Part shown: positions 1,840-56,733 of the stretch, in pieces
How positions within the stretch are numbered: position 1 is the stretch's first letter
Layout of the letters: each line of letters starts with the position of its first letter
Origin: an uncultured Chitinophaga sp.
GTDB taxonomy: Bacteria; Bacteroidota; Bacteroidia; Chitinophagales; Chitinophagaceae
Assembly: GCA_964443345.1 (NCBI GenBank)
Contig: CAYUCU010000003.1
Span: 5,413-69,412, forward strand
Reading direction: 5' to 3'
Length of the DNA stretch: 64,000 bases
Notes under the pieces: model-generated
What the model was told of the DNA's origin: nothing
What the model saw: only the letters and a program-made list of their open reading frames with translations
The model's database searches: none
Program-made: the position numbers and the translations under genes

Positions 1840-1864
1840 GATTTAATAAGATACGTTCAAAAAA

Positions 1865-2404: not shown

Positions 2405-2445
2405 ATAAAATAGTTTTAAGTAATAAAAAGAATGTGTTACTGGTA

Positions 2446-4412: not shown

Positions 4413-4417
4413 CCCTT

Positions 4418-25651: not shown

Positions 25652-27997
25652 ATGCAACAGCGGACCTTCTCCCTTGACCCCCGGTATTTCCAGGTCATCT
25701 TCCAGGCCATCTTTTTAAGTTATGGCCTTTTTTATCTTCATTGGTCAGCAGACTGGATGCACTACATCATCAGCATTGGCGGGTGTTTGTTATTCCAGTA
25801 CTCGGCTGATTCCATTAAAGCAAAGCGTTTTTTAAAACCCGGTGAATTCAATCGCTGGGGTTTCAGTGTGCTCATCAGTGCTATGAGCCTTTGCCTCTTG
25901 TTAAAGGTCAATCACTGGTCGGTCAGTTTGCTGGCTGCATTCATTACTGTTGCTTCAAAGTATATTTTCCGTTTCAATCACAAACATATTTTCAATCCCT
26001 CCGCTATCGGCATTGTAGCAGCCATTTATCTTACTAATAATGCCTGGCTTAGTCCCGGTCAATGGGGGAGCAATACGGTAATTCTGTTTGGCGTCATCAC
26101 ACTGGGCACTATCGTGGTAACAAGAGTGCAAAAGCTGGATGTGTCCTTAGCCTTCTTATTCACTTTTGTTGGTTTATTGTATTGGCGCCAGGTATATGTA
26201 CTCGGCTGGCCGATGGATCATTTTATGCACTCTGTAAGTACGGGCAGCCTGCTGCTGTTTACATTTTTTATGATCAGCGACCCGAGAACATCTCCCAATC
26301 ACCCTGTGGCACGAATGATCTGGGCCGTGGGCATCGCTGCTGTTGCGTTTTATTTAGGTGCCTTTAAATGGAAATACAATACACCTGTCTGGGTACTGGT
26401 AGGCGCAGCGCCATTGGTACCACTGTTAGATAAAATATTCAAGGCAAAAGATTTTACCTGGAGATCTTCTATTCTTCGTTTTAATATTATTTCAAAACTT
26501 AAACAACTAGTCATGAAACCAATGATGAAAAAAGGAGCTGCTGTACTGATCCTGGCAGCAATGTTGGGCCACGAAGCGGCAGCCTTCTGCGGCTTTTATG
26601 TGAGCAAAGCAGATGGTACGCTTAGAAACAAAACCTCACAGGTGATCATCGTAAGAGATGGCAACCGGAATGTGATCACCATGTTCAATGATTTTAAGGG
26701 CAACCTGAAAGACTTTGCCATGGTGGTACCGGTACCGGTAGTATTAAATAAGTCAGACATCAAGGTGGTGGACCAGCAGATATTTACTACACTGAATGAT
26801 TATAGTAAGCCCCGGCTGGTGGAATACTATGATCAGAATCCGTGCAATCCGTACGGGATGGAAGATAAATTGAGCGGGAAAGTTTCCGGACTGCAAATAA
26901 GGGGCAATGCCACATTCAGCGAAGCAGCGAAATCAAAAGACCTTGGAGTAAAAATAGAGGCCAAATACCTCGTAGGTGAGTACGATATCCTCATCCTCTC
27001 TGCCAAAGAATCATCCGGGCTTAAAACCTGGCTGGATGAAAACGGGTATAAAATTCCTGCCGGGGCAGATGAAGTGCTGGCACCTTATATCAAAAGCAAC
27101 CTGAAATTTTTTGTGGTCAAAGTAAATGAGAATGAAAAGAAAAAACTGCCCGGCAATTTTTTACGTCCGCTGCAGATCAGTTTCACTTCCCCCAAATTCA
27201 TGCTTCCTATCCGGTTGGGTATGGCCAATGCCGATGGCGACCAGGATATGATCGTGTATGCATTTACTAAAAAAGGAAGAATTGAGTGTACCAATTACCG
27301 CACACAGTCTTTGCCTACCGGCAACAGGGTCCCCTTATTTGTAAAAAACAATTTTGGTAATTTCTATGCCAATCTTTTCCAAAATCAATGGAGTAAAGAA
27401 GGTAAAGCCATCACCATGCTGGAATATGCGTGGGATGTAAGTCCGAAGAACTATGTAAAATGTGATCCCTGCGTGGCCACGGCTCCTTCCACACAAGACC
27501 TGGTGCAGGCCGGTGTGTGGTGGATCAACCGCGACTGGAATGATTATGGTGATGTGGACGGTGATGAAGAAGGTTACTCTGACAATGTTTACTTCACCCG
27601 TTTGCATGTCCGTTATAACAGGGATAAATTTCCACAGGACCTGATGTTCCAGGTAACGCCCAATACAGAAAGCTACCAGGCCCGTTATGTGATCACTCAT
27701 CCTGCCACCGGAGATTTTAGTTGTGAAGCAGGAAAGAAATACCTGAAAGAATTGAAGGAACGCCGGGCAGATGAAATGGAAATGCTTACGTACCTGACAG
27801 GTAAAGGCTACAGCGACTGGGATGTGGTGCTGGAAGAACCTGAAGAAAAATTCATTCCTGCTGAAGCCTCTTATGCATCCATTGCGCCTAACGTAAACAA
27901 AGGGCCCAAAAGAGACAACGGGATATTATTTGCCACGATAGGAGTAGTAGGGCTGGTTTCGCTGGCCGGATTCACAAACAAAAAGAAGCCTTCATAA
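25652..27997 (+). CDS. RnfD/NqrB-like membrane domain fused to DUF2330 domain, with C-terminal TM anchor
   Basis: N-terminal ~280 aa: KHIFNPSA, FFMISDPRTSP. From ATG 26513: signal-like helix, AFCGFYV, and DUF2330 motifs (FAMVVPVP, GEYDILILSA, MLPIRLG). Ends in a TM helix plus NKKKPS. Confidence 0.8.
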   Translation: MQQRTFSLDPRYFQVIFQAIFLSYGLFYLHWSADWMHYIISIGGCLLFQYSADSIKAKRFLKPGEFNRWGFSVLISAMSLCLLLKVNHWSVSLLAAFITVASKYIFRFNHKHIFNPSAIGIVAAIYLTNNAWLSPGQWGSNTVILFGVITLGTIVVTRVQKLDVSLAFLFTFVGLLYWRQVYVLGWPMDHFMHSVSTGSLLLFTFFMISDPRTSPNHPVARMIWAVGIAAVAFYLGAFKWKYNTPVWVLVGAAPLVPLLDKIFKAKDFTWRSSILRFNIISKLKQLVMKPMMKKGAAVLILAAMLGHEAAAFCGFYVSKADGTLRNKTSQVIIVRDGNRNVITMFNDFKGNLKDFAMVVPVPVVLNKSDIKVVDQQIFTTLNDYSKPRLVEYYDQNPCNPYGMEDKLSGKVSGLQIRGNATFSEAAKSKDLGVKIEAKYLVGEYDILILSAKESSGLKTWLDENGYKIPAGADEVLAPYIKSNLKFFVVKVNENEKKKLPGNFLRPLQISFTSPKFMLPIRLGMANADGDQDMIVYAFTKKGRIECTNYRTQSLPTGNRVPLFVKNNFGNFYANLFQNQWSKEGKAITMLEYAWDVSPKNYVKCDPCVATAPSTQDLVQAGVWWINRDWNDYGDVDGDEEGYSDNVYFTRLHVRYNRDKFPQDLMFQVTPNTESYQARYVITHPATGDFSCEAGKKYLKELKERRADEMEMLTYLTGKGYSDWDVVLEEPEEKFIPAEASYASIAPNVNKGPKRDNGILFATIGVVGLVSLAGFTNKKKPS

Positions 27998-31712: not shown

Positions 31713-32321
31713 TCATTCCTTTAGCAGCCGTTTGGCATCTTTTATCAGGTCCCTCACTTCCGTTTCTTTTATGCCATCATATATTTTCCGTACATCGCCG
31801 TTCTTATCCACCAATGCCCAAAACTGTGTATGCAAAAAATCGTCTTCAGTGTTTTTGAGGTTATTCGCCGGATCATCTATTGTATAGCTTATCCTTGCCA
31901 TATTATAGAGGCTGTCTTTTCTTCCTGTAAGAAACATCCAATTGCTGCTATTCACCCCCAGCGAATCGGCATATCTTTTAAGCTGTGCTACCGTGTCGAT
32001 CCGGGGATCACAAGTGTGAGAAAGAATGAGAAAGTTCTTTTCATTTTTGAATTCTTCATGCACCAGCTTCATGTAATTATTCATGATAGGGCAGATGGTC
32101 TTACAGGTGGTGAAGAAATACTCCGCCACAAATACTTTTCCGGCCACGTCCTTTTCTGTTATCATTTTACCATCCTGGTTGGTAAAGGCAAAAGGCCGTA
32201 TAAAACTGATGGGTGCCACTTTTCGTTTGGCATAATCAGGGATCAACAGGGTAAGGGCATAATAAAAACCAACCGCCAATACCACAAAAAAACTGAGATA
32301 AAACAACTTCTTTTTCGACAT
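31713..32321 (-). CDS. SCO family protein (Cu chaperone / thioredoxin fold)
   Basis: Start MSKKK (ATG 32321). N-terminal TM, FFTTCKTICP (CxxxC), FLHT. -7 box TAACTTTG at 32339-32346 (minus). Confidence 0.9.
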   Translation of the reverse strand: MSKKKLFYLSFFVVLAVGFYYALTLLIPDYAKRKVAPISFIRPFAFTNQDGKMITEKDVAGKVFVAEYFFTTCKTICPIMNNYMKLVHEEFKNEKNFLILSHTCDPRIDTVAQLKRYADSLGVNSSNWMFLTGRKDSLYNMARISYTIDDPANNLKNTEDDFLHTQFWALVDKNGDVRKIYDGIKETEVRDLIKDAKRLLKE

Positions 32322-32384
32322 GCTGTTCAATTGAACGGCAAAGTTACGCCTCAATCAGTCTCGCTTAGTAAAAGGAAACAAGAT

Positions 32385-32415
32385 TTTGCAACTGTGTTGC
32401 TTTTCTGTACCTTTG
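32385..32415 (+). promoter_or_regulatory. Bacteroidota promoter (-33/-7) overlapped by palindromic operator GCAAC-N3-GTTGC
   Basis: TTTG 32385-88, 19-nt spacer, TACCTTTG 32408-15. Palindrome at 32388-32400. Confidence 0.65.
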
Positions 32416-32423
32416 TCAGCTTC

Positions 32424-32816
32424 ATGAAACTGAAAATAAACTGGGATGCATTAGGGATCGGGGCCTCTCTGGCCTGTGCCATACACTGTGCCCTGCTTCC
32501 GCTGTTTCTCAGCAGCCTGCCCCTGTTTGGTATAAACATTATTCACAATACCGCTTTTGAGATCGGGATGATCCTGCTTGCTCTTTGCATTGGTTCCTAT
32601 TCCCTTTATCATGGTTATAAAAAACACCACCACAGCCTGCTGCCCCTTACCCTTTTCTTTGGTGGTTTTATTTTTTTGGTGCTGAAACAATTTTTTATTG
32701 ATTACGAACCCTGGCTGTTGGTTCCTGCTGTTGCCCTGATCATTACCGCCCACCTTATCAACTATAAATCCTGCCGGGTGCATAATCATGCACATGCTGA
32801 TGATTGTAATCACTAA
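32424..32816 (+). CDS. MerC domain membrane protein with His-rich tail
   Basis: MKLKINWDALGIGASLACAIHCALLP, 4 TM segments, tail HNHAHADDCNH. It is the C-terminal part of the spurious 328-aa ORF. Confidence 0.85.
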   Translation: MKLKINWDALGIGASLACAIHCALLPLFLSSLPLFGINIIHNTAFEIGMILLALCIGSYSLYHGYKKHHHSLLPLTLFFGGFIFLVLKQFFIDYEPWLLVPAVALIITAHLINYKSCRVHNHAHADDCNH

Positions 32817-40688: not shown

Positions 40689-41852
40689 TCAAAAAGGTTT
40701 TCCGTGGGTCTTTCGAATCAGCCAATTAACCAGCCGCGGAAAAGGCCTGATGCAGGTAATAAACAAATTCGTCAGCAGGGGATTGCCAAATAAGCGTTGT
40801 ATCCTTCGTCCCATCTTTAAGCGGCCGGCAAATTTCCGTTGCCATTGAAGCGTATATCTTTTCTCCATTTTCTCCCGGGTTGTTTTTCCCTGCAAAAAAT
40901 GGTGGATATGCACAGCCGCCAGTTTGCTGCCATGCAGCGCCATGCTCATCCCGTTTCCGCATAGCGGCGTTATCATACCAGCTGCATCACCTATCATTAG
41001 CACATGGTTCTCTACCTGCGATTTTTTATCAAAGCTTATTTGTGAAATGGTAAGCGGCGCTGCCGGTTTGTTTGCTTCAGCAAAGATCTTTTTCAAATGA
41101 GGGTTACGGCTTAAGATGGTTTGTTCCATTATTGCAATATCACCATTGCTTTTCTGCAAGTTACCGGCGGTGGTTAAGTAACAAAGATTATACTCGTCGC
41201 CTTCTATTTTTACAATACCGCAATACCCGTCCTTAAAATTGTGCAATGCAATAGTGTCCGTTGCAAAAGCTCCTTTGATATGATACTTTACGCCAATATA
41301 GTTATTCAACTTGTTTTTGGCAGCCATACTGAATGGCCGTTTCCATTTTATATCAATATTGCTGCGCTTGCCATAGGTGCCGCATACCAGTTTGGCAGTG
41401 TATGCCTGTTCAGCCGTATCAATGGTGAATTCATCTGCTGAAAACCGTACATCATTCACTTTAGTATTCTCTTTCAATATCACTCCGGCCTCCCTCGCCA
41501 ATTGCGCCAATGTATCATCTAATTTATACCGGCTGATGCCAAAGCCTCCAAGCGGCATATGCTGCTGCAATAATTTGCCTTTCACTGATGATACCTCCAA
41601 TTGTGTAATGATCGGCACGTGCATTCCATCCAGGTCCACACCAAGATCATTTAGAAAATCCCATGCCTCCAGGCTGATGTATTCGCCACATACTTTATGA
41701 AATGGGTATTGCTCTTTTTCAAAAAGAATGATGCGGTGACCCAGTCTTGCTAACTGAACAGATAATGAAAGTCCTGCCAGGCCGCCACCCACAATGGCTA
41801 CATCATATTGTTTGTCCTTGTTCAACAAAAACTTATTAAATGCCCGAAGCAA
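40689..41852 (-). CDS. FAD-dependent oxidoreductase (geranylgeranyl reductase / halogenase-like)
   Basis: DVAIVGGGLAG, HKVCGEYIS, IGDAAGMITPLCGNGMSMA. Confidence 0.88.
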   Translation of the reverse strand: MLRAFNKFLLNKDKQYDVAIVGGGLAGLSLSVQLARLGHRIILFEKEQYPFHKVCGEYISLEAWDFLNDLGVDLDGMHVPIITQLEVSSVKGKLLQQHMPLGGFGISRYKLDDTLAQLAREAGVILKENTKVNDVRFSADEFTIDTAEQAYTAKLVCGTYGKRSNIDIKWKRPFSMAAKNKLNNYIGVKYHIKGAFATDTIALHNFKDGYCGIVKIEGDEYNLCYLTTAGNLQKSNGDIAIMEQTILSRNPHLKKIFAEANKPAAPLTISQISFDKKSQVENHVLMIGDAAGMITPLCGNGMSMALHGSKLAAVHIHHFLQGKTTREKMEKRYTLQWQRKFAGRLKMGRRIQRLFGNPLLTNLFITCIRPFPRLVNWLIRKTHGKPF

Positions 41853-42531
41853 CTAACCATCGGAAAGCCCATTTCCAGGTTATGCTATGTTTTTCAATGC
41901 CCGCCTGTGCCAATAGTTGCTGCCAGTCTTTCTTTTTAAAGCTTCTTGCCACAGAAAGGCAGGCATCATTTTTAACAAGGTAAGATTTACTGAAAAATTT
42001 CGTGATGTATTTTATAAGATAGTAAGCCAGCCAATGCCGGTGCAGGTCGTTGATAAAAAAACCCCTTCGGCTGTTTTGTTGCAGCCATTGCAGCATGGGC
42101 ACCAGTTGTTCATTGGTAAAATGATGGCAAAACAGGGAAGAGAAAATAATATCGGGTTGGCTTTCCCCAAATTGAACAACCGCATAATCACTGCATATCC
42201 ACTGGCAGGGAAGCTGCGGGTATTGCTGTTTGGCAAATGCGATACACTCCGCATTCATATCTATTCCGATAAAGCTAACGGGGATTTGATGCCTGGTGCA
42301 ATATTTATGAATAGCAAAAAGATTGTCGCCACCGCCGCAGCCGATCTCACAAACAGTGACCGGCTCTTTACTGATCAGTAATTGTTTCAGGCCTTTTATT
42401 GTAATGGCATGTCCCCCAAGCCTTGTGTTGATGATATTCAATTCCTTTAAGGTTTGCGCCATCGCATCAAACGAAATAGCATCTCCATCCATTAATTCTT
42501 TTTGGTAACTGCGGTGCAGGAGGTTTATCAT
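41836..42531 (-). CDS. Class I SAM-dependent methyltransferase
   Basis: CEIGCGGGD, FIGIDMN, FSSLFCHHF, FINDLHR. Confidence 0.88.
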   Translation of the reverse strand: MINLLHRSYQKELMDGDAISFDAMAQTLKELNIINTRLGGHAITIKGLKQLLISKEPVTVCEIGCGGGDNLFAIHKYCTRHQIPVSFIGIDMNAECIAFAKQQYPQLPCQWICSDYAVVQFGESQPDIIFSSLFCHHFTNEQLVPMLQWLQQNSRRGFFINDLHRHWLAYYLIKYITKFFSKSYLVKNDACLSVARSFKKKDWQQLLAQAGIEKHSITWKWAFRWLVASGI

Positions 42532-43610
42532 GAAGACAAAATAAGCGTTTCCATTGTTAATCCCGGGCCAAAAGCCGCCCCAAAGATCTTATTTGGCTGC
42601 TGGTTGTTCAAGTCCTTCATGATCTTCTCCAGCACAAATAATACGGTAGGTGAGGACATATTACCATATTCTTTCAGCACATCATAACAGGGCTGCAATT
42701 GTCCGTTGGTAAAGCCCAGGCTGCTGTGTACTGATTCCAGTATCTTTTTCCCCCCGGGATGTATGCACCAGTGGCTGATGTTTTCCTTACTAAGATTCGC
42801 TGCTGTTAATGCATTTTGTACCAGCTCTTCAAAATTCTCTTCTATCATTTCTGCTACATAGCTGCTGAGTGTCATCAAAAAACCGGTGGAAGAAAGTTCC
42901 CAGGCCATATCCGGTTTCCCTTTTAAAGCAACGGTGGAATAAAAATTATCAATTTGTAATCCCTGCTGCTCATTATCCCCGCTTACCAATACAGCCGCTG
43001 CCCCATCTGAAAATAGCATGCTGCTGGTGATATTGTCTGTGGTATTTTCTTTTTGAAAATGAAGGGTGCACAATTCTGTGCAAACGATCAGTACGTTAGC
43101 CTTTTTATCTGCTTTACAAAAAGCATCTGCTATTTTCAATGCATGAATAGCAGCATAGCAACCCATAAAGTTTACCGAGGTGCGAAATGTAGTGGCCGGC
43201 AATTGTAATAATTCGAGTAATTCTAAATCAAGGCCCGGTGCACTCATACCGGTGCAGCTTACGGTGATCAGGTGCGTAATCTCATTTTCGGGAAATTTTT
43301 CCACACATTTTTGGATGGCTTGCAGGGATAGTGGCGCTGCTTCTTTCTGAAACCATTTCATCCGTTGTTCCAGGTTGGGAAAAGGTTCCAGGTTTTCAGA
43401 GGGGCTGTAAAATTGCCATTCGCCGGCAAAGAGACTATAATCCGGGATCACCGAATAGCGGGTCTCAATGCCTCCCTGTTTATATAAGAATCTTAATTTT
43501 CTTTTATCTGCCTCATTTAGTGCATAGACCCGCTGCATAAAATCCAGGATATCTTCCTGTTTATGCTTGTAAGCCGGAACGGCAGTTCCTATTGATAGTA
43601 TTTTACTCAA
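42528..43610 (-). CDS. Type III polyketide synthase
   Basis: Cys-His-Asn triad in FMGCYAA, HPGG and GNMSS. AFGPGLT. TTG start overlaps the UbiA stop. Confidence 0.93.
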   Translation of the reverse strand: MSKILSIGTAVPAYKHKQEDILDFMQRVYALNEADKRKLRFLYKQGGIETRYSVIPDYSLFAGEWQFYSPSENLEPFPNLEQRMKWFQKEAAPLSLQAIQKCVEKFPENEITHLITVSCTGMSAPGLDLELLELLQLPATTFRTSVNFMGCYAAIHALKIADAFCKADKKANVLIVCTELCTLHFQKENTTDNITSSMLFSDGAAAVLVSGDNEQQGLQIDNFYSTVALKGKPDMAWELSSTGFLMTLSSYVAEMIEENFEELVQNALTAANLSKENISHWCIHPGGKKILESVHSSLGFTNGQLQPCYDVLKEYGNMSSPTVLFVLEKIMKDLNNQQPNKIFGAAFGPGLTMETLILSS

Positions 43611-44466
43611 AAAACCTCCAGGTTAATAAAATAATGAATGCGATGTTGGTACAGATAGCTGCCAGCCAGTTCATTTTCATGGTGTTCTTAAAATTGGCCT
43701 CCAGCACATCTTTTCTCACCTTCCAGAACCACTGTATGAAATAAACGATGATTGGCACGAAAAAGATGCTAACGACCAATAATTTACCCGTTTCACCCTT
43801 ATTGATAAAAAATTGTGCCATGAATACCCAGGCCAATGCATAAATGATTGCACAAAAAACAAACGTACCGGTATAGCCCAGTTTATAACTGATGGTCTTT
43901 ACGCCGTCGGCCAGGTCCTGCTGGTGCTGGTAGATCTGTGTAAGCGGGTAAAAGCCACCGATGAGTAAGGCACAGATCGCCATTCCCTGCCAGGGTATGA
44001 AAAAGCGGGTGTCTATATTACTTCCATAATACACCAGGCCGAATGTAAGTGCGCCCTGGAAAATAATTACGGTGAGGTAACCGATAACGGGGAATTTTTT
44101 TAACCTGATGCCCCTGTAACTATAGGCTTTGGAAGCGCCAATATATAACAGCATAAACACCGGTATGAACGGATGAATCAATGCACTCAGCAAGATCGCT
44201 GTAATATCCAATACAATTGTAAGCAAATAAAGTTGACGGGAGGGCGGTGGTGGTTGTTCAATGCCGCCGATGCTTTCCGTATCCCGGTCCATATAACTAT
44301 TGTATCCGTTACTGGCAGGATAAATTAAAAAATGAAGGATAACAAATAGCAGCGCTGCCTTCCACCAATTGATATTTGGCACTTGTGACAAAGCAAAAAA
44401 ATATAACGGAGATAAAAAGATCGAAAACGGTATCCGCAACAACTTAATGGTTGATGATGAAAGCAT
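43603..44466 (-). CDS. UbiA family prenyltransferase
   Basis: NGYNSYMDRDTE and QHQQDLADGVKT Asp-rich motifs, multiple TM helices. Confidence 0.88.
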   Translation of the reverse strand: MLSSSTIKLLRIPFSIFLSPLYFFALSQVPNINWWKAALLFVILHFLIYPASNGYNSYMDRDTESIGGIEQPPPPSRQLYLLTIVLDITAILLSALIHPFIPVFMLLYIGASKAYSYRGIRLKKFPVIGYLTVIIFQGALTFGLVYYGSNIDTRFFIPWQGMAICALLIGGFYPLTQIYQHQQDLADGVKTISYKLGYTGTFVFCAIIYALAWVFMAQFFINKGETGKLLVVSIFFVPIIVYFIQWFWKVRKDVLEANFKNTMKMNWLAAICTNIAFIILLTWRFFE

Positions 44467-44522
44467 ACTGGTCACAATGTTACTCTAAGGTAACACTACA
44501 TAGCAGTATTCCTGCCAAAGGC

Positions 44523-46580
44523 TTACCGGATGATCAGCGCTGCAGGATGATACACTCTCTTCGCTGTCCGCAGCACTTCTTTTTTATCCAGTGTCATCGG
44601 TTTGGTCTGCTGGTTTTGAAACAGTGTCAGCTGGTCTTTAAAGTGTGGTGATTTAGGATTCATAGAAGCCCCAAAAGTATTCACCGTTTCAATTACTGGT
44701 AAGCCGCCATTTTTGGGGTATCGTATAAAACAGATATAGGCATCACCACCCGTTACTTTCCGCATACCATTTATATAGGGCTCAGAAAAAGAAGGTGTCA
44801 GCACATCCGGAAAACCCCAGGCTGGCCGGACATCATCGCCCCGTACTAGTTTTTGTATATCGCCCAGCACCAGATCTGTTTTTCCAAAATGTTTCATCAT
44901 ATAGTCATACACATACTGGTAGGTTTCCACCGCTTCAGCCCTGGTAACTTGTCTCGTAGGAACGCCTTTGAGCTTGTCGGCGAGATAATAGTAAGTAAGC
45001 AAAAAAACGGCTGCGCCTTTACTGGAAGCAACTGATCTTTTATCCCAGTTTTGAAACACGGTGATCACTTCTTTCAAAGCGGGATAGTCCGCCGCATTTA
45101 AATGGAGCATACTGTCTATACCATAAGTATATTTCAGTTCTTTGGGCAGTTGCTGGTCAAACTTGATTCGTTTGAATGTGTTGTAATCCACTTTATCTCC
45201 ATTGATCAATTCAGTGACCCGCTGACTGCGGTTGTTATGATACGTTTCATACCCGTCATTCTTGTCAAACTTTGTTTTATCAAGATTGTACTTTACATCG
45301 GTGGCTAAAAAAGGGGAGTGGTTGGTATTGAACAAATATCCTGAGGGAGGATTGATGTATTGTGGCAATTCCCCCACTGGTTTGAATTCGGTCCACAAGG
45401 TGGCAGAGGTATTCCCTGGCAGGGTGCTTTTCCAGTTATACGTTGGGTCAGGGTTTCTTCTCGGCATTTTTCCATTGCTGATATAAAAGATCGTATCATA
45501 CCGGTCAGCATACGTAATGTTGAACATTGGAAGGCTTGTCATGCTAAGCGCTTTGTAAAACTCTGTAAAGTTCCTCGCCTTATTCATCCGGTACCATTGT
45601 TCCAGGGCTTTGATGTCCATTGTGGCTGGCACCCGTAAAGAAAAAACACCTTTGTCGGTTTTTACAGTAGCTCCGTATTTGCTCCACCATATTTTTTTAC
45701 CAATAGTGATCGGAATGCCTTTTACTTTCAGTTTTGCCTTGTCTTCTTCCAGGTCCACCCATTGCCCGTCAAATTTGTATTGATCCTTATTTGCCGGGTT
45801 CATTTCCAATTGATACACATCTACCTTGTCCTGGTAGTTTACTGTATGGGCCCAGCCCAGATTTTCATTGGTACCATGAAAGATGAGGCAGCCTCCGGGA
45901 AACAAACCGCCGAGCATATTCCAGCCCTGCTCGCTTTGCAAATGTGCTTCGTAAAAAGCTACCGGACCTGTATTCGGCTGATGCGCATTCACTGCCAGGA
46001 AGGATTCTCCCGTAGTTGTTTTTGCAGCGTTCATCGCAAATGCATTGGAGCCATTGGGGTTAAACCCGGGAATAGTAGCCACTTTACCACCTACTATTTG
46101 CGGCAGTACCTGGTCCACACCACAAAAAAGGGCGGTTGAAAAAACCACGGCTGTCATGTAGTCTTTTTCATCAAAGGGAAAAGCCTGTTTGTATTTTACA
46201 TCAGCAGGGTAAGCGGCTGCATATGCATTTAATCCGGCCACATAGCCTTTTATTAATTCAATAAAATCAGGACTGAGTGTATGCCACTGCTCCTCCACTG
46301 TTTTCCGGATGCGCAGCAATTTGATCACATAATCTCCTTCTGCACCTTTTTTACCAAGGCCTGTTCCCAGTTTGGCCTTGCCGCTAAGCACCACCAGTTG
46401 CAGTGTTTCAAAATCATCTTCTGCATGTGCCCATGCAATACCGTATGCCACTTCGGGATCGGTAGGTGCAAAGATGTGCGGAATGCCAAAGCTGTCACGG
46501 GCAATGGTAATATTGGAAGGATTGATCTGTGCTGAGGCGTTCAGGGAAATAATAAGCAGGAGTATGGCAATTTTTTTCAT
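44523..46580 (-). CDS. Penicillin acylase family Ntn-hydrolase (PvdQ/QuiP-like)
   Basis: Signal peptide, RDSFGIPHI, GSNAF (Ser nucleophile), NAHQP, GWAHTVN. Confidence 0.92.
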   Translation of the reverse strand: MKKIAILLLIISLNASAQINPSNITIARDSFGIPHIFAPTDPEVAYGIAWAHAEDDFETLQLVVLSGKAKLGTGLGKKGAEGDYVIKLLRIRKTVEEQWHTLSPDFIELIKGYVAGLNAYAAAYPADVKYKQAFPFDEKDYMTAVVFSTALFCGVDQVLPQIVGGKVATIPGFNPNGSNAFAMNAAKTTTGESFLAVNAHQPNTGPVAFYEAHLQSEQGWNMLGGLFPGGCLIFHGTNENLGWAHTVNYQDKVDVYQLEMNPANKDQYKFDGQWVDLEEDKAKLKVKGIPITIGKKIWWSKYGATVKTDKGVFSLRVPATMDIKALEQWYRMNKARNFTEFYKALSMTSLPMFNITYADRYDTIFYISNGKMPRRNPDPTYNWKSTLPGNTSATLWTEFKPVGELPQYINPPSGYLFNTNHSPFLATDVKYNLDKTKFDKNDGYETYHNNRSQRVTELINGDKVDYNTFKRIKFDQQLPKELKYTYGIDSMLHLNAADYPALKEVITVFQNWDKRSVASSKGAAVFLLTYYYLADKLKGVPTRQVTRAEAVETYQYVYDYMMKHFGKTDLVLGDIQKLVRGDDVRPAWGFPDVLTPSFSEPYINGMRKVTGGDAYICFIRYPKNGGLPVIETVNTFGASMNPKSPHFKDQLTLFQNQQTKPMTLDKKEVLRTAKRVYHPAALIIR

Positions 46581-49493: not shown

Positions 49494-49590
49494 CTCCCCT
49501 TGCTTTTTCCTCCTTATGACAGCAGAAGCGATCAAAAAAAGCCGGCTTTTTTCAAGCCGGCCGTCGTGTTGATATTGGGTTCTAAGTATC

Positions 49591-50578: not shown

Positions 50579-51199
50579 TTACTGTGGCTGTCCCTGTAAT
50601 ATCCATTCTTTGAATTTATTGATGGTACAAGTGGTAAGGCTTAAAGGACCGCCGGGGTGGCCCTGGCTGCCGCCGCTGTTCATAATAGCACTGATGGTAT
50701 TTTTTTCAGCCACCATCTTATTATAATCCAGGGTAATGGCTAAACCACCATGGCAGGTTGCTCCTTTGCAACCGCTGGTATAGATCGGTAAAATATCCAA
50801 AGTGTAGCGGATAGTTCCGGTTACAGTGCAGCCAGCTCCATCATCATAAGGATCGCCTTGTTCTATCCATCTTTTAATGATGTTTTTTTCATTGGCAGCA
50901 AATTCAATTCCGCCACCACCGGGGTGTTTACCCACGAGCCTTGACATAGAATCAAAATAGGCTCTCCGGGAAAGAATGGCATCATAAAACACTGTATCAA
51001 AATGAGAGAACTGCACAGCCCTTGTGCCAATTCCATTGTTATGGCAACCGCAGGGGCCGGCTGTTATGATCGGCACCACTTCACTTCTGAATGAAACCCT
51101 GGGAAGGGCAGTAATGTCTTCTTTATTTTTATAACAGGATGACAATGCATAGATAATCATGGTCGTCATCATTGCTGTTACTAATATTCTTGTTTTCAT
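50579..51199 (-). CDS. Diheme cytochrome c-like lipoprotein with atypical motifs (CXCH, CX4CH)
   Basis: Lipobox LSSC. Two repeats of [VSF/IRY]..[EV/DI].PI...C..CH...HPGG...WI.QG. Confidence 0.72.
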   Translation of the reverse strand: MKTRILVTAMMTTMIIYALSSCYKNKEDITALPRVSFRSEVVPIITAGPCGCHNNGIGTRAVQFSHFDTVFYDAILSRRAYFDSMSRLVGKHPGGGGIEFAANEKNIIKRWIEQGDPYDDGAGCTVTGTIRYTLDILPIYTSGCKGATCHGGLAITLDYNKMVAEKNTISAIMNSGGSQGHPGGPLSLTTCTINKFKEWILQGQPQ

Positions 51200-51229
51200 A
51201 TCCTGAAATTTTAGAATGATTTTATTGGA

Positions 51230-52420
51230 TTACCTCCTGATGATAGTTCCTGACTTCCTGTATTTGAATATGCCCACATTAGCCGTTCCGTATTTCCATA
51301 CATCTGGCACATTGGGATCAGCAAAGTACCATGCCTTGATCAGGGCTACTTCATTTGGTTTCAATCCGCCATCGCCATAGGCCATATCGCCCTGGTGAGA
51401 TGTTGCAAAGACATTAGTAAAGGGATTGGCCAATAACAAAGTAGAGTCACATCTTGAAACCATAGAGCTGCTTACATTCAGATAATTGCCTTTTGCATAA
51501 TACTGCACCAGTGTTACCGGGTCGGTATATTGCACACTGGAATTACTTCTGGCACTTTTTGGATACATAATATCCATCAGGATGTCGTCATAATTCTGCA
51601 GCGGGCCTCTTGTGCTAAGTGCAGATCTTGGGGTAGTAAATGTTTTCCATGGACGGAAGCTGGCATAAGCCACTGTATCAGAATAGAATTTTTTTACGCT
51701 GTCTTTATATGCTGTCCAAACCTGGTTGCGCAGTGTGGCATTGGAAAGCTGACAGTATACTGTTATTGCGCCTGTAACAGGGTTGATATAAGTGAACTGT
51801 GTGGTGTCTGCATTGGTCAATGTACCAAGCAATCCTTTGCGGGCCCATCCGCCAGTGGCCGTGGCCTGATTGTGACAGTTGGCAGAACCGCATCCATCTA
51901 CTATTAAGCGGATAGCAGCAGGCCTGAAATCTGAAAGATCAGGTCTTTCTTTTGCGCCATTTTTGATCCAGTTATAAATAAGGCCCTTGTCAGACGTATT
52001 CAGCTCATGACTTGAAGCCACAGGAGGCATCGCCTTATTGAAATCATTGGTGGTAATATATTCCCACAGCTTGCTTCCATTTGGATTGCCGGGTGTAACA
52101 AACTTCATGATCTCGGCATACGTATCAAATTTTGGGGCAATAGGCCCGCCATGACAATTGGAGGTGCCACAATACTCATGAATCACTGTTTGCACACCCC
52201 TGTACTTGATCTTGTCATTTATATCCGGGGTAGCATCAGAAGGCGTGATGGTGTTGCTTTCATAAAATGCAGCAAATACTGTGGAATCGGCCGCCCCGGT
52301 ATAGGATCTGTCCAGATCTTTTACAAGAACACCCTCCTTAGTACACTGAAAAACAGCAGTTGAAAGAAATACACCACAAAGAATTAAGACCGCTGTTTGG
52401 ATAGAAGAAACTTTTTTCAT
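51230..52420 (-). CDS. Cytochrome c-like lipoprotein with two CX4CH motifs
   Basis: Lipobox-like VFQC. CGTSNCH...AMPP...NWIKNGA (planctomycete cytochrome C-like) and CGSANCH. Confidence 0.72.
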   Translation of the reverse strand: MKKVSSIQTAVLILCGVFLSTAVFQCTKEGVLVKDLDRSYTGAADSTVFAAFYESNTITPSDATPDINDKIKYRGVQTVIHEYCGTSNCHGGPIAPKFDTYAEIMKFVTPGNPNGSKLWEYITTNDFNKAMPPVASSHELNTSDKGLIYNWIKNGAKERPDLSDFRPAAIRLIVDGCGSANCHNQATATGGWARKGLLGTLTNADTTQFTYINPVTGAITVYCQLSNATLRNQVWTAYKDSVKKFYSDTVAYASFRPWKTFTTPRSALSTRGPLQNYDDILMDIMYPKSARSNSSVQYTDPVTLVQYYAKGNYLNVSSSMVSRCDSTLLLANPFTNVFATSHQGDMAYGDGGLKPNEVALIKAWYFADPNVPDVWKYGTANVGIFKYRKSGTIIRR

Positions 52421-52537
52421 AAAAAGCCAGTTTAACTGATTGAAAATTGATACTGGTAAGAGCTATGCTTTAAAAACTAGTTTTCAAAAGTAGCCTGGGT
52501 CTCATTGACAGTTTTATGACAAGGGCCTGTGTTAAAC

Positions 52538-52652
52538 ATGACTTTTGTCACATTGGCTGCTAAGGGGTGTCAGTTTACACGCTTCTGTGACATTTCTCAC
52601 TTTGCTCCTTGACGTCTGTCATGAAACAGGCCATTCGCCATGAATAAGTTGC
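52538..52652. promoter_or_regulatory. Three Crp/Fnr-like TGA-N6-TCA boxes and a -7-like element in the divergent promoter region
   Basis: ATGACTTTTGTCAC at 52538-51, TGTGACATTTCTCAC at 52586-600, TTGACGTCTGTCAT at 52609-22, TAAGTTGC at 52645-52. Confidence 0.6.
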
Positions 52653-52686
52653 ATCACCTTTTTTTACTCTAAAACAAACCTCAACC

Positions 52687-52911
52687 ATGGGCAATACTAA
52701 AAAATCAACAGACCAGTCCCGCCGCGGTTTTTTCTCTCATTTCCTGTCAAAAAAAGAAACAAGCACCGAAAAAATAAAGATGCTTACTGCTGAAGGTAAA
52801 TTGGTGGAAGTGGATAAAGCCGTGTTTGATGCTGCCACTAAAAATCAAAAAGCAACCAATAAAGACATCTACACCTGGATGAACAATCCCTCTAAAGAAA
52901 CCAACGAATAA
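52687..52911 (+). CDS. Small protein resembling the Tat/N-terminal segment of the downstream Fe-S protein
   Basis: SRRGFF and TEKIKMLTAEGKLVEVD, versus SRRDFI and TEKIKLLSPDGEIVEID in 52937-53905. Confidence 0.75.
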   Translation: MGNTKKSTDQSRRGFFSHFLSKKETSTEKIKMLTAEGKLVEVDKAVFDAATKNQKATNKDIYTWMNNPSKETNE

Positions 52912-52936: not shown

Positions 52937-53905
52937 ATGAAACAGGAAGAAATAAATGACAAAAGCCGGCGGGATTTTATAAAAACCGCCGCCATTGCAA
53001 CGGTGGCAACTGCTGCCTGCGGAAGCCTCGTCTGTTCCTGCTCTTCTAAAAAAGCTGCAGTTACTGAAAAGATAAAACTCCTTTCCCCGGATGGAGAAAT
53101 TGTGGAGATCGACTCCGCTTATCTTAATCATCATGAAAATATGGCTGTGTTGTCCCAGCACGAACAAAGAATAGGAATAGCAGGAAAAAAATTTGTAATG
53201 GTAGTGGACCTGGCCCGCTGCAAAAATGCCCGGAAGTGCATTACCGCCTGCCAAAAACATCACTACCGCCCCGAGGAAACAGAATGGCTTACTATAAAAT
53301 TGATGAAGGATAGTGATAAAGGGGCCCCCTACTGGTTTCCAAAACAGTGCTTCCATTGCGACAACCCTCCTTGCGTAAAAGTGTGTCCCGTGGATGCTAC
53401 ATTCAAAAGACAGGATGGCCTGGTATTAATAGACAATGAACGTTGTATCGGTTGTAAGTTTTGCATGGCTGCCTGCCCTTACTCTACCCGTGTATTCAAC
53501 TGGAACGAACCCGAATTGCCGCTGGATATCAAAAACCTGCCCTACTCTGCCGAAACCGGTGTGCCTGCCCAGGTAGGTACCGTGGAGAAATGTGATTTCT
53601 GTCCCGACAGGGCAAGAGAAGGTTTGCTTCCTCCTTGTGTGGAGGCCTGCCCCAACGGAGTATTTTATTTTGGTGATGAAAATGAGGATACTGTTACCAA
53701 TGGTGACGAAACAGTCAGCTTCACTCAATTAATAAAAGACCGTGCCGGGTACCGGTATATGGAAGAACTGGGTACCAAACCAAGAGTGTATTACCTGCCA
53801 CCAAAAGACAGGCAGTTCCCGGTGGAAAGAGGCTATGAATCATTATCTGATGATCTGAAAGAACGGTACAAAGAGTATAAAGACGTATTGGGAGAAAAGA
53901 AATAG
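52937..53905 (+). CDS. Tat-exported 4Fe-4S dicluster protein (NrfC/DsrO/HmcB-like)
   Basis: SRRDFIK signal. Cys groups CKNARKCITAC, CFHCDNPPCVKVCP, CIGCKFCMAACP, CDFC...PPCVEACP. Confidence 0.9.
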   Translation: MKQEEINDKSRRDFIKTAAIATVATAACGSLVCSCSSKKAAVTEKIKLLSPDGEIVEIDSAYLNHHENMAVLSQHEQRIGIAGKKFVMVVDLARCKNARKCITACQKHHYRPEETEWLTIKLMKDSDKGAPYWFPKQCFHCDNPPCVKVCPVDATFKRQDGLVLIDNERCIGCKFCMAACPYSTRVFNWNEPELPLDIKNLPYSAETGVPAQVGTVEKCDFCPDRAREGLLPPCVEACPNGVFYFGDENEDTVTNGDETVSFTQLIKDRAGYRYMEELGTKPRVYYLPPKDRQFPVERGYESLSDDLKERYKEYKDVLGEKK

Positions 53906-53947: not shown

Positions 53948-55318
53948 ATGGAACTTAATACTTATCAACAGGAAGCCTTCAATTACCAGCGGAAGAATAT
54001 TGAAAAGTTTGGCAAAAAGAACTGGGCCTGGACCATCTTCTTCCTTCTCTGGATCATCGTTGGCGGATATGCCTTGTATTTACAAATTGCAAAAGGCCAT
54101 GGGGTAACGGGTATGCGGGATAATGTGGTATGGGGCCTGTTCATCGTCAATTTTATATTCTTTATCGGTATCAGCTATGCCGGGGCGATCATTGCCGGGT
54201 TATTACACCTTTTTAAAGTGCCCTGGGGCAAACCCATCATCCGTATTGCACAGCTGATGACGATCGTATCAGTTATCGTAGGACCGATATTTATTTTGCT
54301 TTGTGTAGGCCGGTTCGACCGCCTGCATCACCTGTTCATTTATCCACGGCTGCAATCTCCCATGACATGGGATGTACTGGCCATCCTAACTTATTTTGTC
54401 GGCAGCGTTCTATTCCTGTATATGGCATTGATAAAAGATTTCGCTGTGTACCGCGATGCCAAACTGAACATTCCAAAATGGAAACAACGGATGTATAAGT
54501 TCCTGGCAATAGGATACCGTGGCGCTGCCAGTCAGAAAAGACACCTGCTCATTTCACAGAACCTGCTGGCCATCATCATGATCCCGCTTTCTATTATTGT
54601 AAGTTCTATCCTCTCCTGGATATTTGGTATGACGCTGCGGCCGGGATGGCACAGCACTATCTTCGGCCCCTACTTCGTATTGGGTGCATTGTATTCTGGT
54701 TGTGGTGTGCTGATAGTTGCCATGTGGGTGTACAGAAAGATGTATAAACTTGAAACCTATTTTACCGACCGGCATTTCATTTATCTCGGTTATATCATAA
54801 TGGTGCTGGCCGCCGGTTATGGATACTTTACTTTCTCCGAATACTTCACCAGTTGGTTTGGCTCGGAAAAATGGGACAATGAAGTGATCAATAAATTATT
54901 CAATCCCGCAGCGTATGGCTGGTGGACATTGTTTGCTAATACAGCTGGCATCCTTTTACCCATACTTATTGTAGCGATACCAAAAACAAGAAAGCCTAAC
55001 CTTATTACACTGGCTGCCTTCCTGATGGTGATCGCCCTGTGGGTAAAACGGTATCTCATCATTGTTCCTACTCTGGAAACTCCGCTGCTTCCCATACAGG
55101 ACACCAGGGCCGCTTATGTTAAATACTCAGCTACCTGGCCAGAATGGGCGTTGACCTTTGCCGGTATTGCATCCTTCCTGTTGTTCTTTACCATTATGTC
55201 AAAGTTTGTAACGATTGTTCCTGTGTCAGGGCTGGAAGACACACACAAACCTTATGAACATGCCCACACTGAACATAACCACATAGAAACAAAAAAAGAA
55301 GAAGTTCATCCTGCATAA
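53948..55318 (+). CDS. NrfD/PsrC family integral membrane protein (ActC-like)
   Basis: WGLFIVNFIFFIGISYAG, VGRF, SPMTWD, PGWHSTIFGPYF, ~10 TM helices. Confidence 0.9.
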   Translation: MELNTYQQEAFNYQRKNIEKFGKKNWAWTIFFLLWIIVGGYALYLQIAKGHGVTGMRDNVVWGLFIVNFIFFIGISYAGAIIAGLLHLFKVPWGKPIIRIAQLMTIVSVIVGPIFILLCVGRFDRLHHLFIYPRLQSPMTWDVLAILTYFVGSVLFLYMALIKDFAVYRDAKLNIPKWKQRMYKFLAIGYRGAASQKRHLLISQNLLAIIMIPLSIIVSSILSWIFGMTLRPGWHSTIFGPYFVLGALYSGCGVLIVAMWVYRKMYKLETYFTDRHFIYLGYIIMVLAAGYGYFTFSEYFTSWFGSEKWDNEVINKLFNPAAYGWWTLFANTAGILLPILIVAIPKTRKPNLITLAAFLMVIALWVKRYLIIVPTLETPLLPIQDTRAAYVKYSATWPEWALTFAGIASFLLFFTIMSKFVTIVPVSGLEDTHKPYEHAHTEHNHIETKKEEVHPA

Positions 55319-55328: not shown

Positions 55329-56291
55329 ATGAAACAAATTCTTATATCAGCTTCACTAAAAAAATCCCGGCGGTTTATCCTCTTTGCAGGATTGATGGTA
55401 CTGTTGCTTACACCAGCTGGTCTTTTTGCACAAACAGACACCACAAAAACAACAGCTACTGAAGAACCTGCTGCCGCAGAAGAATCATCATTGATCTCTC
55501 CGACCATTGAATTCATCAGCGTTCAAAAAAGCAATAACACCATTGATCTGAAAGCTTCGCTGAGAGCCAAGATAAAAGGTTCGCTGACAAAGCTCCATAG
55601 CCTGAAGGTGAGATTCTACCTGATGAATGATACAATGGAACAGGAACTCGGAGCAGTAAATGCCGACATGAAAGGCGTAGCGCTGCTGAATGTAAAAGCG
55701 GATGCCATTACTCCTGATAAAGAAGGCAAACTGCATTTCAAAGCAGTCGTAGCCGGTAATAAATCAATGGAAGGAGCAAATGAAGAACTAACCATTAAAA
55801 GGGCCATACTTACCATTACCCCTGTAAAAGAAGATTCGTTGCTAAGTGTTTCCGTTAAACTGGTGGATATGGTAAGCGGAGTGGAAACCCCCGTAAAAGA
55901 AGCAGTTATCGGAATATTTGTTACCCGCTTATTCAATCCCCTGAAAGTGGTAGAAGCCACCACAGATGAAAATGGTGAGGCTTCTGTTGAATTTCCGGCC
56001 AACCTCCCGGGAGATGCAAAAGGCAATTTAACCCTGCTGGCCAGACTGGATGAAAGTGAGGTTTATGGCAACCTGGAAGCTTCTTCAGAGCAAAAATGGG
56101 GAGTTCCTGTTTCTAACTTAAATGAAGAACAGCCAAGGGCTTTATGGAGTTCACATCCCCCGATGTGGATGCTTATAACCTTTATTGTACTGATGGTGAC
56201 TGTATGGGGGCATTACATTGTTATCATATATGAACTGTTCCGTTTAAGAAAAGAGCAACCTCATGCACCTGTTGATGCAACTAATCCTTAA
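55329..56291 (+). CDS. Exported Ig-like protein with C-terminal TM anchor
   Basis: Signal peptide, beta-rich body (ATTDENGEASVEF), C-terminal TM PPMWMLITFIVLMVTVWGHY. Confidence 0.75.
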   Translation: MKQILISASLKKSRRFILFAGLMVLLLTPAGLFAQTDTTKTTATEEPAAAEESSLISPTIEFISVQKSNNTIDLKASLRAKIKGSLTKLHSLKVRFYLMNDTMEQELGAVNADMKGVALLNVKADAITPDKEGKLHFKAVVAGNKSMEGANEELTIKRAILTITPVKEDSLLSVSVKLVDMVSGVETPVKEAVIGIFVTRLFNPLKVVEATTDENGEASVEFPANLPGDAKGNLTLLARLDESEVYGNLEASSEQKWGVPVSNLNEEQPRALWSSHPPMWMLITFIVLMVTVWGHYIVIIYELFRLRKEQPHAPVDATNP

Positions 56292-56322
56292 TAAAACAAT
56301 ATCTTTAAATAGTAAAAAAACA

Positions 56323-56733
56323 ATGAAAATGAAAAAAAATGTAACTGTACTGATGTCATGCCTCTTTGCTGTTGGCTTCCTGGCTTTTGTACCAAAAAAC
56401 AGCGTACAGGATCCCTGGCCTGTTCCTGATGCATATAAAAACAAGGTAAATCCGCTTAAAGGCAATGTCGAATCTATCGCTACAGGCAAGACCCTTTACA
56501 ACCAGCATTGCAAGTCCTGTCATGGAACAAAAGGAAAAGGTGACGGACCTAAAGCATCCCAGTTAGATACTGAATGCGGCGATTTTACTAAAGCCTCTTT
56601 CCATGCACAGACAGATGGTTCCTTGTTTTACAAAACATACCAGGGAAGAAAAGATATGCCCTCTTATAAAACCAAGATACCAGATGCTAATGATATCTGG
56701 GCTGTGGTTAATTATATGAGAACATTGAAATAA
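56323..56733 (+). CDS. Monoheme class I cytochrome c
   Basis: Start MKMKKN (ATG 56323). NP..GKTLYNQHCKSCHG and distal MP. Confidence 0.9.
   Translation: MKMKKNVTVLMSCLFAVGFLAFVPKNSVQDPWPVPDAYKNKVNPLKGNVESIATGKTLYNQHCKSCHGTKGKGDGPKASQLDTECGDFTKASFHAQTDGSLFYKTYQGRKDMPSYKTKIPDANDIWAVVNYMRTLK

Follow-up and report, generated by a model that had tools for sequence, protein, structure and literature searches.

Two lipoproteins of an uncultured Chitinophaga that lack CxxCH: predicted diheme cytochromes c with CX4CH and contracted CXCH motifs, encoded beside a DUF5777 barrel

Introduction

Can a protein that contains no CxxCH motif belong to the c-type cytochromes and, if so, what might it do in the cell envelope? 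The question is raised by two adjacent genes in a stretch of DNA of 64,000 nucleotides from an uncultured Chitinophaga sp. of the Bacteroidota (GenBank assembly GCA_964443345.1, contig CAYUCU010000003.1, positions 5,413 to 69,412 of the forward strand); this whole stretch is referred to below as the window. The two genes code for predicted lipoproteins of 396 and 206 amino acids, which we call p396 and p206. An earlier note on this DNA had read two strings in each protein (CGTSNCH and CGSANCH in p396, CGCH and CKGATCH in p206) as heme motifs of unusual spacing. The coordinates and reading frames of the four motifs are indeed as that note had them, CxxCH is absent from both proteins, the repeats that bear the motifs end in W-I-x-x-G or A-W-Y (RWIEQG, EWILQG, NWIKNG and KAWYFA), and HPGG occurs twice in p206.

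We conclude that p206 and p396 are cytochrome-c-type proteins which are invisible to a search for CxxCH, p396 being recognised by the Pfam model PSCyt1 and p206 having no match in Pfam or NCBIfam. We also consider it moderately probable that the pair makes up a set of four-heme cytochromes which belongs to a variant of a cytochrome-plus-barrel module and takes part in an electron relay of the envelope.

Conservation of the motifs

The motifs cannot be put down to chance. When each protein was subjected to 20,000 composition-preserving shuffles, two such motifs appeared in none of the shuffles of p206 and in 1/20,000 of those of p396, which rules out this origin. All four motifs are kept in the homologues: among the matches listed, CGCH and CX4CH are present in 120/120 homologues of p206, and CX4CH occurs twice in 120/120 homologues of p396, where the first motif reads C[GA]TSNCH or a close variant. 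Representatives of the p206 clade (clustering at 50%) carry the motifs in 19/19 cases; the two Cys, the His and the distal His or Met are invariant while the remaining sequence diverges to about 33-41% identity. Two further Cys of p206, C124 and C191, are also invariant. One carrier in culture, Chitinophagaceae bacterium LWZ2-11, codes for a homologue with CGCH. The second domain of p396 contains an insertion of roughly 150 residues between the heme motif and the distal Met, and the mean column identity of this protein among 35 homologues is 85%, insertion included. Both proteins start with what we judge from the sequence to be a signal peptide, each with an invariant lipobox Cys.

The earlier note had reserved the possibility that CGCH is a sequencing error. 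This is ruled out by the conservation among homologues and by two independent public assemblies, both of biofilter metagenomes, in which the stretch is found without a single difference or indel. In a diverged strain from drinking water, no motif residue is changed among the substitutions listed, the only one of them that falls within a motif being at a third-codon position (52163); 32 further differences stand outside those listed.

One more long open reading frame (ORF) of the window, and only one, contains a C-x4-C-H string. It codes for a MerC-family membrane protein (31830-32816, plus strand; CIAYPCH at 31881-31901), and this string is probably unrelated to heme.

Relationship to cytochromes c

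p396 matches PSCyt1 (PF07635) with an E-value of 5.7e-5 and a score of 24.1 bits, for a cut-off of 22, and p206 is labelled 'hypothetical' in every source. The two proteins are connected to each other and to recognised cytochromes by profile-profile alignment (hhalign) with a Bacteroidota diheme family: the match covers both domains of p206 (99.8%, E 2e-29) and extends to p396 (99.4%, E 1.4e-21). In the first domain of p396, CGTSNCH aligns with the CA-SGCH of this family, and the MPP that starts at M131 aligns with the MPP of PSCyt1, of FoxE and of the Bacteroidota family. Once the insertion is removed, the second domain aligns with the family's CX4CH domain (83%, E 8.8e-6), M346 falling on the distal Met.

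A search of 1.84 billion representative proteins with the p206-family profile returned 659 relatives. The distant ones consist of 2-5 repeats of ~100 residues, each with CX4CH (typically C-A-x-S-G-C-H) or CxxCH followed by 'MP' ~45 residues further on. Members of the family match PSCyt1, Cytochrome_CBB3, Cytochrom_C and PccH, and those that bear a name are called 'c-type cytochrome domain-containing protein' or 'mono/diheme cytochrome c family protein'. The family profile also matches solved cytochromes, namely FoxE (5MAB, E 2e-6 to 3e-6), the C-terminal heme domain of the hydrazine synthase alpha subunit, PccH and cytochrome c6. The p396 profile matches FoxE with an E-value of 0.024, and the close p206 family alone gives only a marginal match to PccH in a search of PDB sequences (E 0.81). 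A model of p206 that AlphaFold built from a deep alignment (predicted local distance difference test, pLDDT, of 82.6) places helices 37-46 and 132-144 before the motifs and a C-terminal helix in each domain, a helix order that looks class-I-like.

In 150 representatives of the family we counted 180 CX4CH, 161 CxxCH and 19 CXCH motifs. Going by the alignment, in which it occupies the position of CxxCH, CX4CH is what one domain of this large Bacteroidota family normally has. The earlier note had presented all four motifs as unusual; this stands for the contracted CGCH, which is specific to the 206-residue clade, and is to be abandoned for CX4CH, which is a hallmark of the family and no oddity. 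Other spacings are met in distant members: CX3CH in two of them (CTTSCH in P0358, whose distal string reads 'HGGG', and CGGTCH in P0306) and CX5CH in one. Since such members exist, motif spacing is, as far as alignments tell, generally plastic in this cytochrome family.

The heme pocket of p206

The joint alignment of the p206 clade and its relatives (79 sequences) shows how the contracted motif may have arisen. All 79 sequences have the second Cys and the His. Where the relatives read C-A-x-S-G-C-H, the p206 clade reads G-P-C-G-C-H, with Cys50 on the family's Ser; the ancestral position of the first Cys is lost from domain 1 of p206, and the segment from the helix to the His is two residues shorter. 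The distal columns contain 58 Met and 20 His for heme 1, and 59 Met and 18 His for heme 2. The contraction to CGCH and the change from Met to His at both distal positions are specific to the 206-residue clade. Because motif and distal residues are invariant in this clade to about 33-41% identity, the pattern fits a functional heme pocket that would have been remodelled, and not one that is decaying.

The earlier note had proposed low-potential hemes with bis-His ligation. The part of this proposal that can be read from the alignment holds: in both distal loops, the His of HPGG takes exactly the place of the Met in the 'MP' of the family. The ligation itself is a prediction. Because of this alignment, bis-His ligation in p206, and hence a lower redox potential, is plausible. 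C124 and C191 correspond to a pair of Cys that is kept throughout the family (71 and 72 of 79 sequences, respectively), and they probably form a disulfide.

The operon and the DUF5777 barrel

The genes of p396, p206 and a DUF5777 outer-membrane beta-barrel follow one another with gaps of 30 nt (p396 to p206) and 46 nt (p206 to DUF5777), and a hairpin at 49540-49562 would mark the end of the operon (Table 1). A DUF5777 gene comes after p206 in essentially all related loci. The distant relatives of these cytochromes in Aquirufa, Chitinophagaceae and Bacteroidales are all encoded beside a DUF5777 gene as well, often with YceI.

The linkage also holds in the reverse direction. Of 80 loci chosen by their DUF5777 gene alone, 77 have genes for cytochromes of the family upstream of it, on the same strand; the other 3 have too little upstream sequence to judge. 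These loci span Bacteroidales, Cytophagales, Chitinophagales, Saprospiraceae and Flavobacteriales, and they contain 77 CX4CH motifs. The common operon, as found for example in the cultured Adhaeribacter terreus, codes in this order for a diheme lipoprotein (CX4CH and CxxCH), a monoheme protein of ~125 residues, an OB-fold protein, YceI and DUF5777. Aquirufa rosea is another cultured species that has it. YceI is present in 65/80 and the OB-fold protein in 60/80 of the loci chosen by DUF5777, and both are found in 0/81 loci of the p206 type. Several genomes carry operons of both kinds. Among the carriers of the p206-type cluster are complete genomes, such as OZ251999.1 and OY970254.1.

One related locus (L011) contains two extra three-gene modules upstream of its p396 homologue (618-6521 of that locus, minus strand). 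The first consists of an EB_dh (heme-b/DOMON-like) protein, a monoheme CX4CH lipoprotein of 130 residues and DUF5777; the second of a YceI-like protein, a CX4CH lipoprotein of 126 residues and DUF5777. Cytochrome and barrel behave as a modular pair in this locus, with a first gene that varies.

Across about 30% identity, two His of DUF5777 are invariant, H67 (I-x-H-x-F-G) and H269 (G-G-H-x-F-Q), as are many Lys, Arg, Gln and Asn. A passive porin would not usually show such conservation of polar residues, which suggests that DUF5777 has an active site or binds a cofactor. We found no solved relative of DUF5777 in the PDB and, in the literature, neither a paper on DUF5777 nor one that links CX4CH with Bacteroidetes.

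The divergent operon and the shared control region

Upstream of p396, on the opposite strand, lie five genes that code for a 74-residue protein, a Tat-exported (twin-arginine translocation) iron–sulfur protein, an NrfD-family membrane subunit, a 320-residue protein and a monoheme cytochrome c (Table 1). The layout of eight genes that results from the two operons is found in most of 80 Chitinophagaceae loci, and most p206-type loci with enough upstream sequence have this NrfC/NrfD-cytochrome c operon in place of YceI and the OB-fold protein. The 74-residue protein resembles the N-terminal ~65 residues of the iron–sulfur protein (BLASTP, 50% identity over 28 residues, E 2e-7) and is paralogous to it; a role as Tat chaperone or as decoy is conceivable. 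No match to the 320-residue protein was found in Pfam, NCBIfam or the PDB. As listed, the ORF of the monoheme cytochrome overlaps the end of the gene for the 320-residue protein; a start at Met21 (~56323) gives MKMKKN... and a possible lipobox L-M-S-C, and the true start is probably this Met21, at about 56323.

The region between the two operons contains TGAC-N4-GTCA palindromes. In 53 homologous intergenic regions the palindrome occurs at 3.67/kb, versus 0.066/kb in the loci overall, a 55-fold enrichment, and at least one copy is present in 31/53 of these regions. TGAC-N4-GTCA probably marks the operator of a regulator and, because the control region that they share carries these enriched palindromes, co-regulation of the two divergent operons is suggested. 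A search for RNA-seq runs that contain the stretch returned none.

Table 1. Features of the p396/p206/DUF5777 operon and of the divergent operon (positions in the window).
Feature	Position	Strand	Remarks
p396	51230..52420	minus	ORF; 396-aa lipoprotein, two PSCyt1-like cytochrome c domains
p396 Cys26	52343..52345	minus	predicted lipidated Cys after signal peptide ...AVFQ|C; Q25-C26 invariant; from sequence
p396 CGTSNCH, residues 84-90	52151..52171	minus	CX4CH heme motif 1; His90 is the predicted proximal ligand
p396 Met131 in 'AMPP'	52028..52030	minus	predicted distal ligand of heme 1; M131-P132-P133 invariant
p396 CGSANCH, residues 177-183	51872..51892	minus	CX4CH heme motif 2; C177, C182, H183 invariant
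p396 Met346 in 'GDMAYGDGG'	51383..51385	minus	predicted distal ligand of heme 2; M346 invariant
p206	50579..51199	minus	ORF; 206-aa lipoprotein, two cytochrome c domains, predicted diheme and bis-His
p206 Cys22	51134..51136	minus	lipobox Cys (L-S-S-C), then YKNKED; L19, S21, C22, Y23, N25, D28 invariant
p206 CGCH, residues 50-53	51041..51052	minus	contracted CXCH motif, domain 1
p206 H92-PGG, residues 92-95	50915..50926	minus	predicted distal His of heme 1; H92, P93, G94 invariant
p206 CKGATCH, residues 144-150	50750..50770	minus	CX4CH motif, domain 2; CxxCH at the same place in relatives
p206 H181-PGG, residues 181-184	50648..50659	minus	predicted distal His of heme 2; H181 invariant in clade
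DUF5777 outer-membrane beta-barrel, 313 aa	49591..50532	minus	third operon gene; PF19089, E 2.3e-61
Intrinsic-terminator-like hairpin	49540..49562	minus	9-bp stem, 6 GC pairs, T-run; just past the DUF5777 stop
Divergent control region	52421..52686		TGAC-N4-GTCA palindromes at 52539-52550 and 52610-52621; further TGACA/TGTCA half-sites
74-aa protein	52687..52911	plus	SRRGFF twin-arginine-like motif; conserved in synteny
Tat-exported multi-4Fe-4S protein (NrfC/DsrO-like)	52937..53905	plus	Fer4_11, E 2e-25; Tat signal; NCBIfam DsrO 187.6 bits, cut-off 200
NrfD/PsrC-family integral membrane subunit, quinol-interacting	53948..55318	plus	PF03916, E 1.6e-30; DsrP-like, 79 bits, cut-off 350
320-aa protein	55329..56291	plus	signal/anchor and C-terminal transmembrane helix; conserved in synteny
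Monoheme class-I cytochrome c	56263..56733	plus	CKSCH at 56509-56523, Met in 'DMP'; PF00034, E 1.2e-12; PF13442, E 1.3e-11

Maturation and cell location

The ordinary cytochrome maturation system of Bacteroidota is System II. With a regular expression for the WWD signature of heme-handling proteins (CcsA, CcmC or CcmF type), no such ORF was detected in the window or in 166 related loci taken with 3.5-8 kb on each side (1.8 Mb in total), and we reject a heme lyase linked to the cluster within that range. The earlier note had left the choice between a permissive and a dedicated maturation system. The latter has no support in the vicinity of these genes and, because none of the 166 loci has a heme-lyase gene nearby, we favour a permissive general System II as the likelier of the two. 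Since nearly every operon of the family has CX4CH, throughout the phylum, this motif must be within reach of the ordinary maturation system.

The residues after the lipid Cys had been taken as a hint of surface export. The tested optimum of the export signal is C-X-K-(D/E)2-X, and its position is critical (PMC5080379). p206 reads C-Y-K-N-K-E-D, where the Lys at +3 is not conserved, the Asn at +4 is invariant and the acids stand at +6 and +7; p396 reads C-T-K-E-G, with a single acid. Both appear to match the signal in part only and, given these deviations, we do not hold that either protein carries a clear one.

Proposed function and alternative explanations

In the mechanism that we propose, p396 and p206 would be c-type cytochromes exported by Sec and anchored by lipid, with two PSCyt1-like class-I domains each. 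Heme would be bound covalently at all four non-canonical motifs, the proximal ligand being the His after the second Cys; p396 would contain two His/Met hemes (M131 and M346) and p206 two His/His hemes (H92 and H181), one of which on the contracted CGCH, and both proteins would be matured by the ordinary System II. With the DUF5777 barrel, they would form a variant of a cytochrome-plus-barrel module that occurs throughout the Bacteroidota, and this Chitinophagaceae variant would be paired with the divergent operon for the Tat-exported 4Fe-4S protein, the NrfD-type quinol subunit and the monoheme cytochrome c. An electron relay would then cross the periplasm and connect, in one direction or the other, the pool of menaquinone with a redox process located at the outer membrane or outside it; the relay would join the NrfD/Fe-S module and the monoheme cytochrome to an outer-membrane process that involves DUF5777. 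As to what this process may be, the chemistry of Fe(II) or Mn(II) is one candidate and no more than a lead, which comes from the similarity to FoxE and from the biofilter habitat.

Several points weigh against this proposal. p206 alone matches no curated cytochrome model in Pfam, in NCBIfam or in a search of PDB sequences; a first AlphaFold model of it, made from a shallow alignment of close homologues, was poor (pLDDT 47), and Foldseek found nothing meaningful in the PDB for the full-length two-domain model. The heme of the Bacteroidota family members is itself predicted. The synteny with the quinol module is observed only within Chitinophagaceae, where flanking housekeeping genes are likewise syntenic, and in several loci the two operons are separated by other modules. 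With ~300 residues, the barrel lacks the size that lets MtrB enclose a cytochrome. Last, electrons that pass from His/Met to bis-His hemes would have to move uphill, which makes the order of the carriers uncertain.

The proposal can be carried further. DUF5777 barrels and cytochrome lipoproteins of the CX4CH type may be an unrecognised phylum-wide system for electron transfer at the outer membrane, analogous in function to porin-cytochrome complexes and to Cyc2 and built from different parts; the barrel, given its two invariant His and its many invariant polar residues, may itself hold a cofactor or a lipid-soluble carrier, and electrons would arrive through YceI and the OB-fold protein in the common form, and through a dedicated NrfC/NrfD and cytochrome c quinol module in the form of the Chitinophagaceae, with its predicted bis-His diheme protein that contains CXCH. 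This extension is tentative, and we would sooner doubt it than assert it.

A different explanation of the same genes, which we think rather unlikely although it deserves serious attention, is that they code for a periplasmic redox enzyme system with no conduit to the exterior. The insertion near heme 2 of p396 would be catalytic or would bind the substrate, and DUF5777 would only let the substrate pass; Fe(II) or Mn(II), a compound of sulfur or of nitrogen, and a carrier soluble in lipids are candidates for this substrate, an Fe(II) oxidase like FoxE being one version. p396 is unusually conserved, insertion included; among solved proteins its closest relative is FoxE, an Fe(II) oxidase; the carrier organism is found in metagenomes of biofilters, drinking water and freshwater; the invariant polar residues of DUF5777 exceed the needs of a passive porin; and in other modules the cytochrome is paired with EB_dh, YceI or Rieske proteins. 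All this speaks for such a system. However, the similarity to FoxE, stronger for the family profile than for p396, is confined to the domain that they share and is not accompanied by foxY or foxZ, and no relative of known function was detected for the insertion.

Another alternative concerns the contracted site alone: the three CX4CH sites would bind heme normally and CGCH would not form two thioethers, so that the heme would be attached to Cys52 alone or domain 1 would be heme-free, with Cys50 as an axial or redox-active thiol or as a disulfide partner. Attachment of heme by a single Cys is a feature of the mitochondrial cytochromes c of euglenozoans and we know of only a single CXCH site with a biochemical characterisation. 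The loss of the ancestral first Cys, with the new one on a Ser position, means that the geometry of this site differs from that of the relatives, and C124 and C191 offer further invariant Cys. On the other hand, C50, G51, C52, H53 and H92 are invariant in every member of the clade, to ~33% identity, as expected of a constrained four-residue site; the invariant Gly between the two Cys is what a very tight turn would need; and C124 and C191 probably pair with each other, which would leave neither free for Cys50. We regard this alternative as unlikely.

It is very improbable, finally, that the domains are heme-free relics of cytochromes whose Cys and His bind Zn, Fe or Cu or form structural disulfides: the failure of p206 to match a curated cytochrome model, the structure search without a cytochrome match and the formal Cys2His2 sets of p206 (C50/C52/H53/H92 and C144/C149/H150/H181) speak for it, but in the class-I fold the heme cavity lies between the Cys pair and the distal ligand, so that they would make no single metal site, hundreds of relatives have the canonical CxxCH and Met at the same positions, the operon context is redox throughout (Fe-S, NrfD, cytochrome c), and the loss of a cofactor usually relaxes the conservation of a motif, which is absolute here.

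Significance

That CX4CH and CXCH can be heme motifs was known already, CX4CH being listed among such motifs (PMC11492766), and so were PSCyt1-like domains, which are in Pfam. What is new is the recognition of p206 as a cytochrome; the finding that a Bacteroidota clade conserves CXCH together with a distal His, a combination whose origin can be traced; and the finding that CX4CH is the norm in a family tied to DUF5777.

The practical consequence is that surveys based on CxxCH overlook p206 and p396 altogether and arrive at too few hemes for a family that is widespread in Bacteroidota. For instance, CxxCH was the only motif screened for when metagenome-assembled genomes from activated sludge were surveyed for secreted cytochromes (PMC11495043). 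Such under-counting affects estimates of redox capacity and of extracellular electron transfer in communities of wastewater, biofilters and freshwater.

The CX4CH sister proteins, together with the distal change from Met to His, provide a convenient comparison with which the tolerance of the System II heme lyase to motif spacing can be studied. If CGCH bears heme, it would be, to our knowledge, only the second natural contracted motif shown to do so, with no predecessor in Bacteroidota or in a simple class-I-type domain. The near-obligate pairing of the cytochrome with DUF5777 is a first functional handle on this barrel family, and the module as a whole points to an unstudied redox system in the envelope of a major phylum, for which cultured carriers exist that could be used for genetics.

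Other features of the window

Elsewhere in the window, a cluster at 40689-44475 (minus strand) codes for a UbiA prenyltransferase, a type III polyketide synthase, a methyltransferase and an FAD monooxygenase, and resembles the phenolic-lipid clusters of alkylresorcinol or alkylquinone type; a penicillin-amidase-family gene (44523-46580) adjoins it. An ORF of 781 residues at 25652-27997 (plus strand) joins an NQR2/RnfD/RnfE-like membrane segment to DUF2330, an unusual fusion. The segment 1865-9485 (minus strand) contains two tandem genes with phage-tail-collar domains, beside a gene of the Asp/Asn beta-hydroxylase family, and two genes for large proteins (806 and 852 residues) with weak MG2 (alpha-2-macroglobulin-like) domains.

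Comparison with known systems

The closest recognised domain is PSCyt1 ('Planctomycete cytochrome C'). p396 and p206 share with it a unit of ~90 residues in which an N-terminal helix leads into the heme motif, 'MP' follows ~45 residues on, and a helix with W-I-x-x-G-A closes the domain; p396 is above the gathering score and its relatives reach 40-150 bits. Unlike in PSCyt1, the motif is CX4CH or CXCH instead of CxxCH, and the Pfam match begins at the '..CH' end of the motif, at position 3 of the profile; the proteins are short Bacteroidota lipoproteins, whereas those of planctomycetes are large and multidomain; and p206, with a distal His for Met, escapes detection by the model.

The best solved relative by sequence is FoxE of Rhodobacter ferrooxidans SW2 (5MAB), a periplasmic diheme Fe(II) oxidase with Met as distal ligands and a structural disulfide (PMC10654088). 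Its segment 'PGDPEASKVF...RMPPG...WIKQGAK' resembles domain 1 of p396. In contrast to p396, FoxE has two CxxCH, no lipobox and another order of hemes and ligands, and the similarity spans one domain, which makes it a functional lead and not a sign of membership. Membership of FoxEYZ is excluded: CxxCH is absent, and the neighbouring genes include none that is FoxY-like (a pyrroloquinoline quinone protein) or FoxZ-like (a transporter).

In the divergent operon, a Tat-exported multi-4Fe-4S subunit accompanies an NrfD-family membrane subunit, as in NrfCD, DsrOP and alternative complex III (ACIII). Unlike in those systems, there is no catalytic subunit, no DsrMKJ and no pentaheme ActA, and the place is taken by the 74-residue Tat-motif protein, the 320-residue protein and the monoheme cytochrome c. 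We rejected membership of DsrMKJOP, NrfCD or Qrc, since the scores for DsrO (187.6 for a cut-off of 200) and DsrP (79 for a cut-off of 350) fall short, those for QrcC and QrcD are far below, and genes for DsrMKJ, NrfA/B and QrcA/B are absent.

The organisation of the locus, with genes for a c-type cytochrome and an outer-membrane barrel in one operon, beside a quinol-linked module of the inner membrane, is that of MtrCAB, PioAB/MtoAB and Cyc2. It differs from these in a barrel of ~300 residues, versus the 26 strands of MtrB, in mono- or diheme lipoproteins instead of decahemes, and in having no Cyc2-like fusion. DUF5777 has no similarity to solved barrels, and we do not assign the module to conduits of the MtrCAB type, whose barrels have >20 strands (versus 313 residues here) and whose cytochromes are decahemes (versus one or two hemes).

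Two other cytochromes resemble p206 and p396 in their motifs. The tetraheme cytochrome c3 of Desulfovibrio combines CX4CH motifs with bis-His, low-potential hemes in a class III multiheme fold that is matured by System I. It shares CX4CH with both proteins and bis-His ligation with what is predicted for p206, and it is not homologous to their domains. The contracted motif has its counterpart in KsTH, a tetraheme cytochrome of the System II organism Kuenenia stuttgartiensis, whose CKCH binds heme according to Ferousi et al. (2019, JBC 294:16953). KsTH is multiheme, of another type and from another phylum, and homology with p206 is not expected; the site of p206 lies in a class-I-type domain, with Gly as the middle residue and a predicted distal His. 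What the two proteins have in common is a natural CX1CH site, which in p206 is present, invariant and predicted to carry heme.

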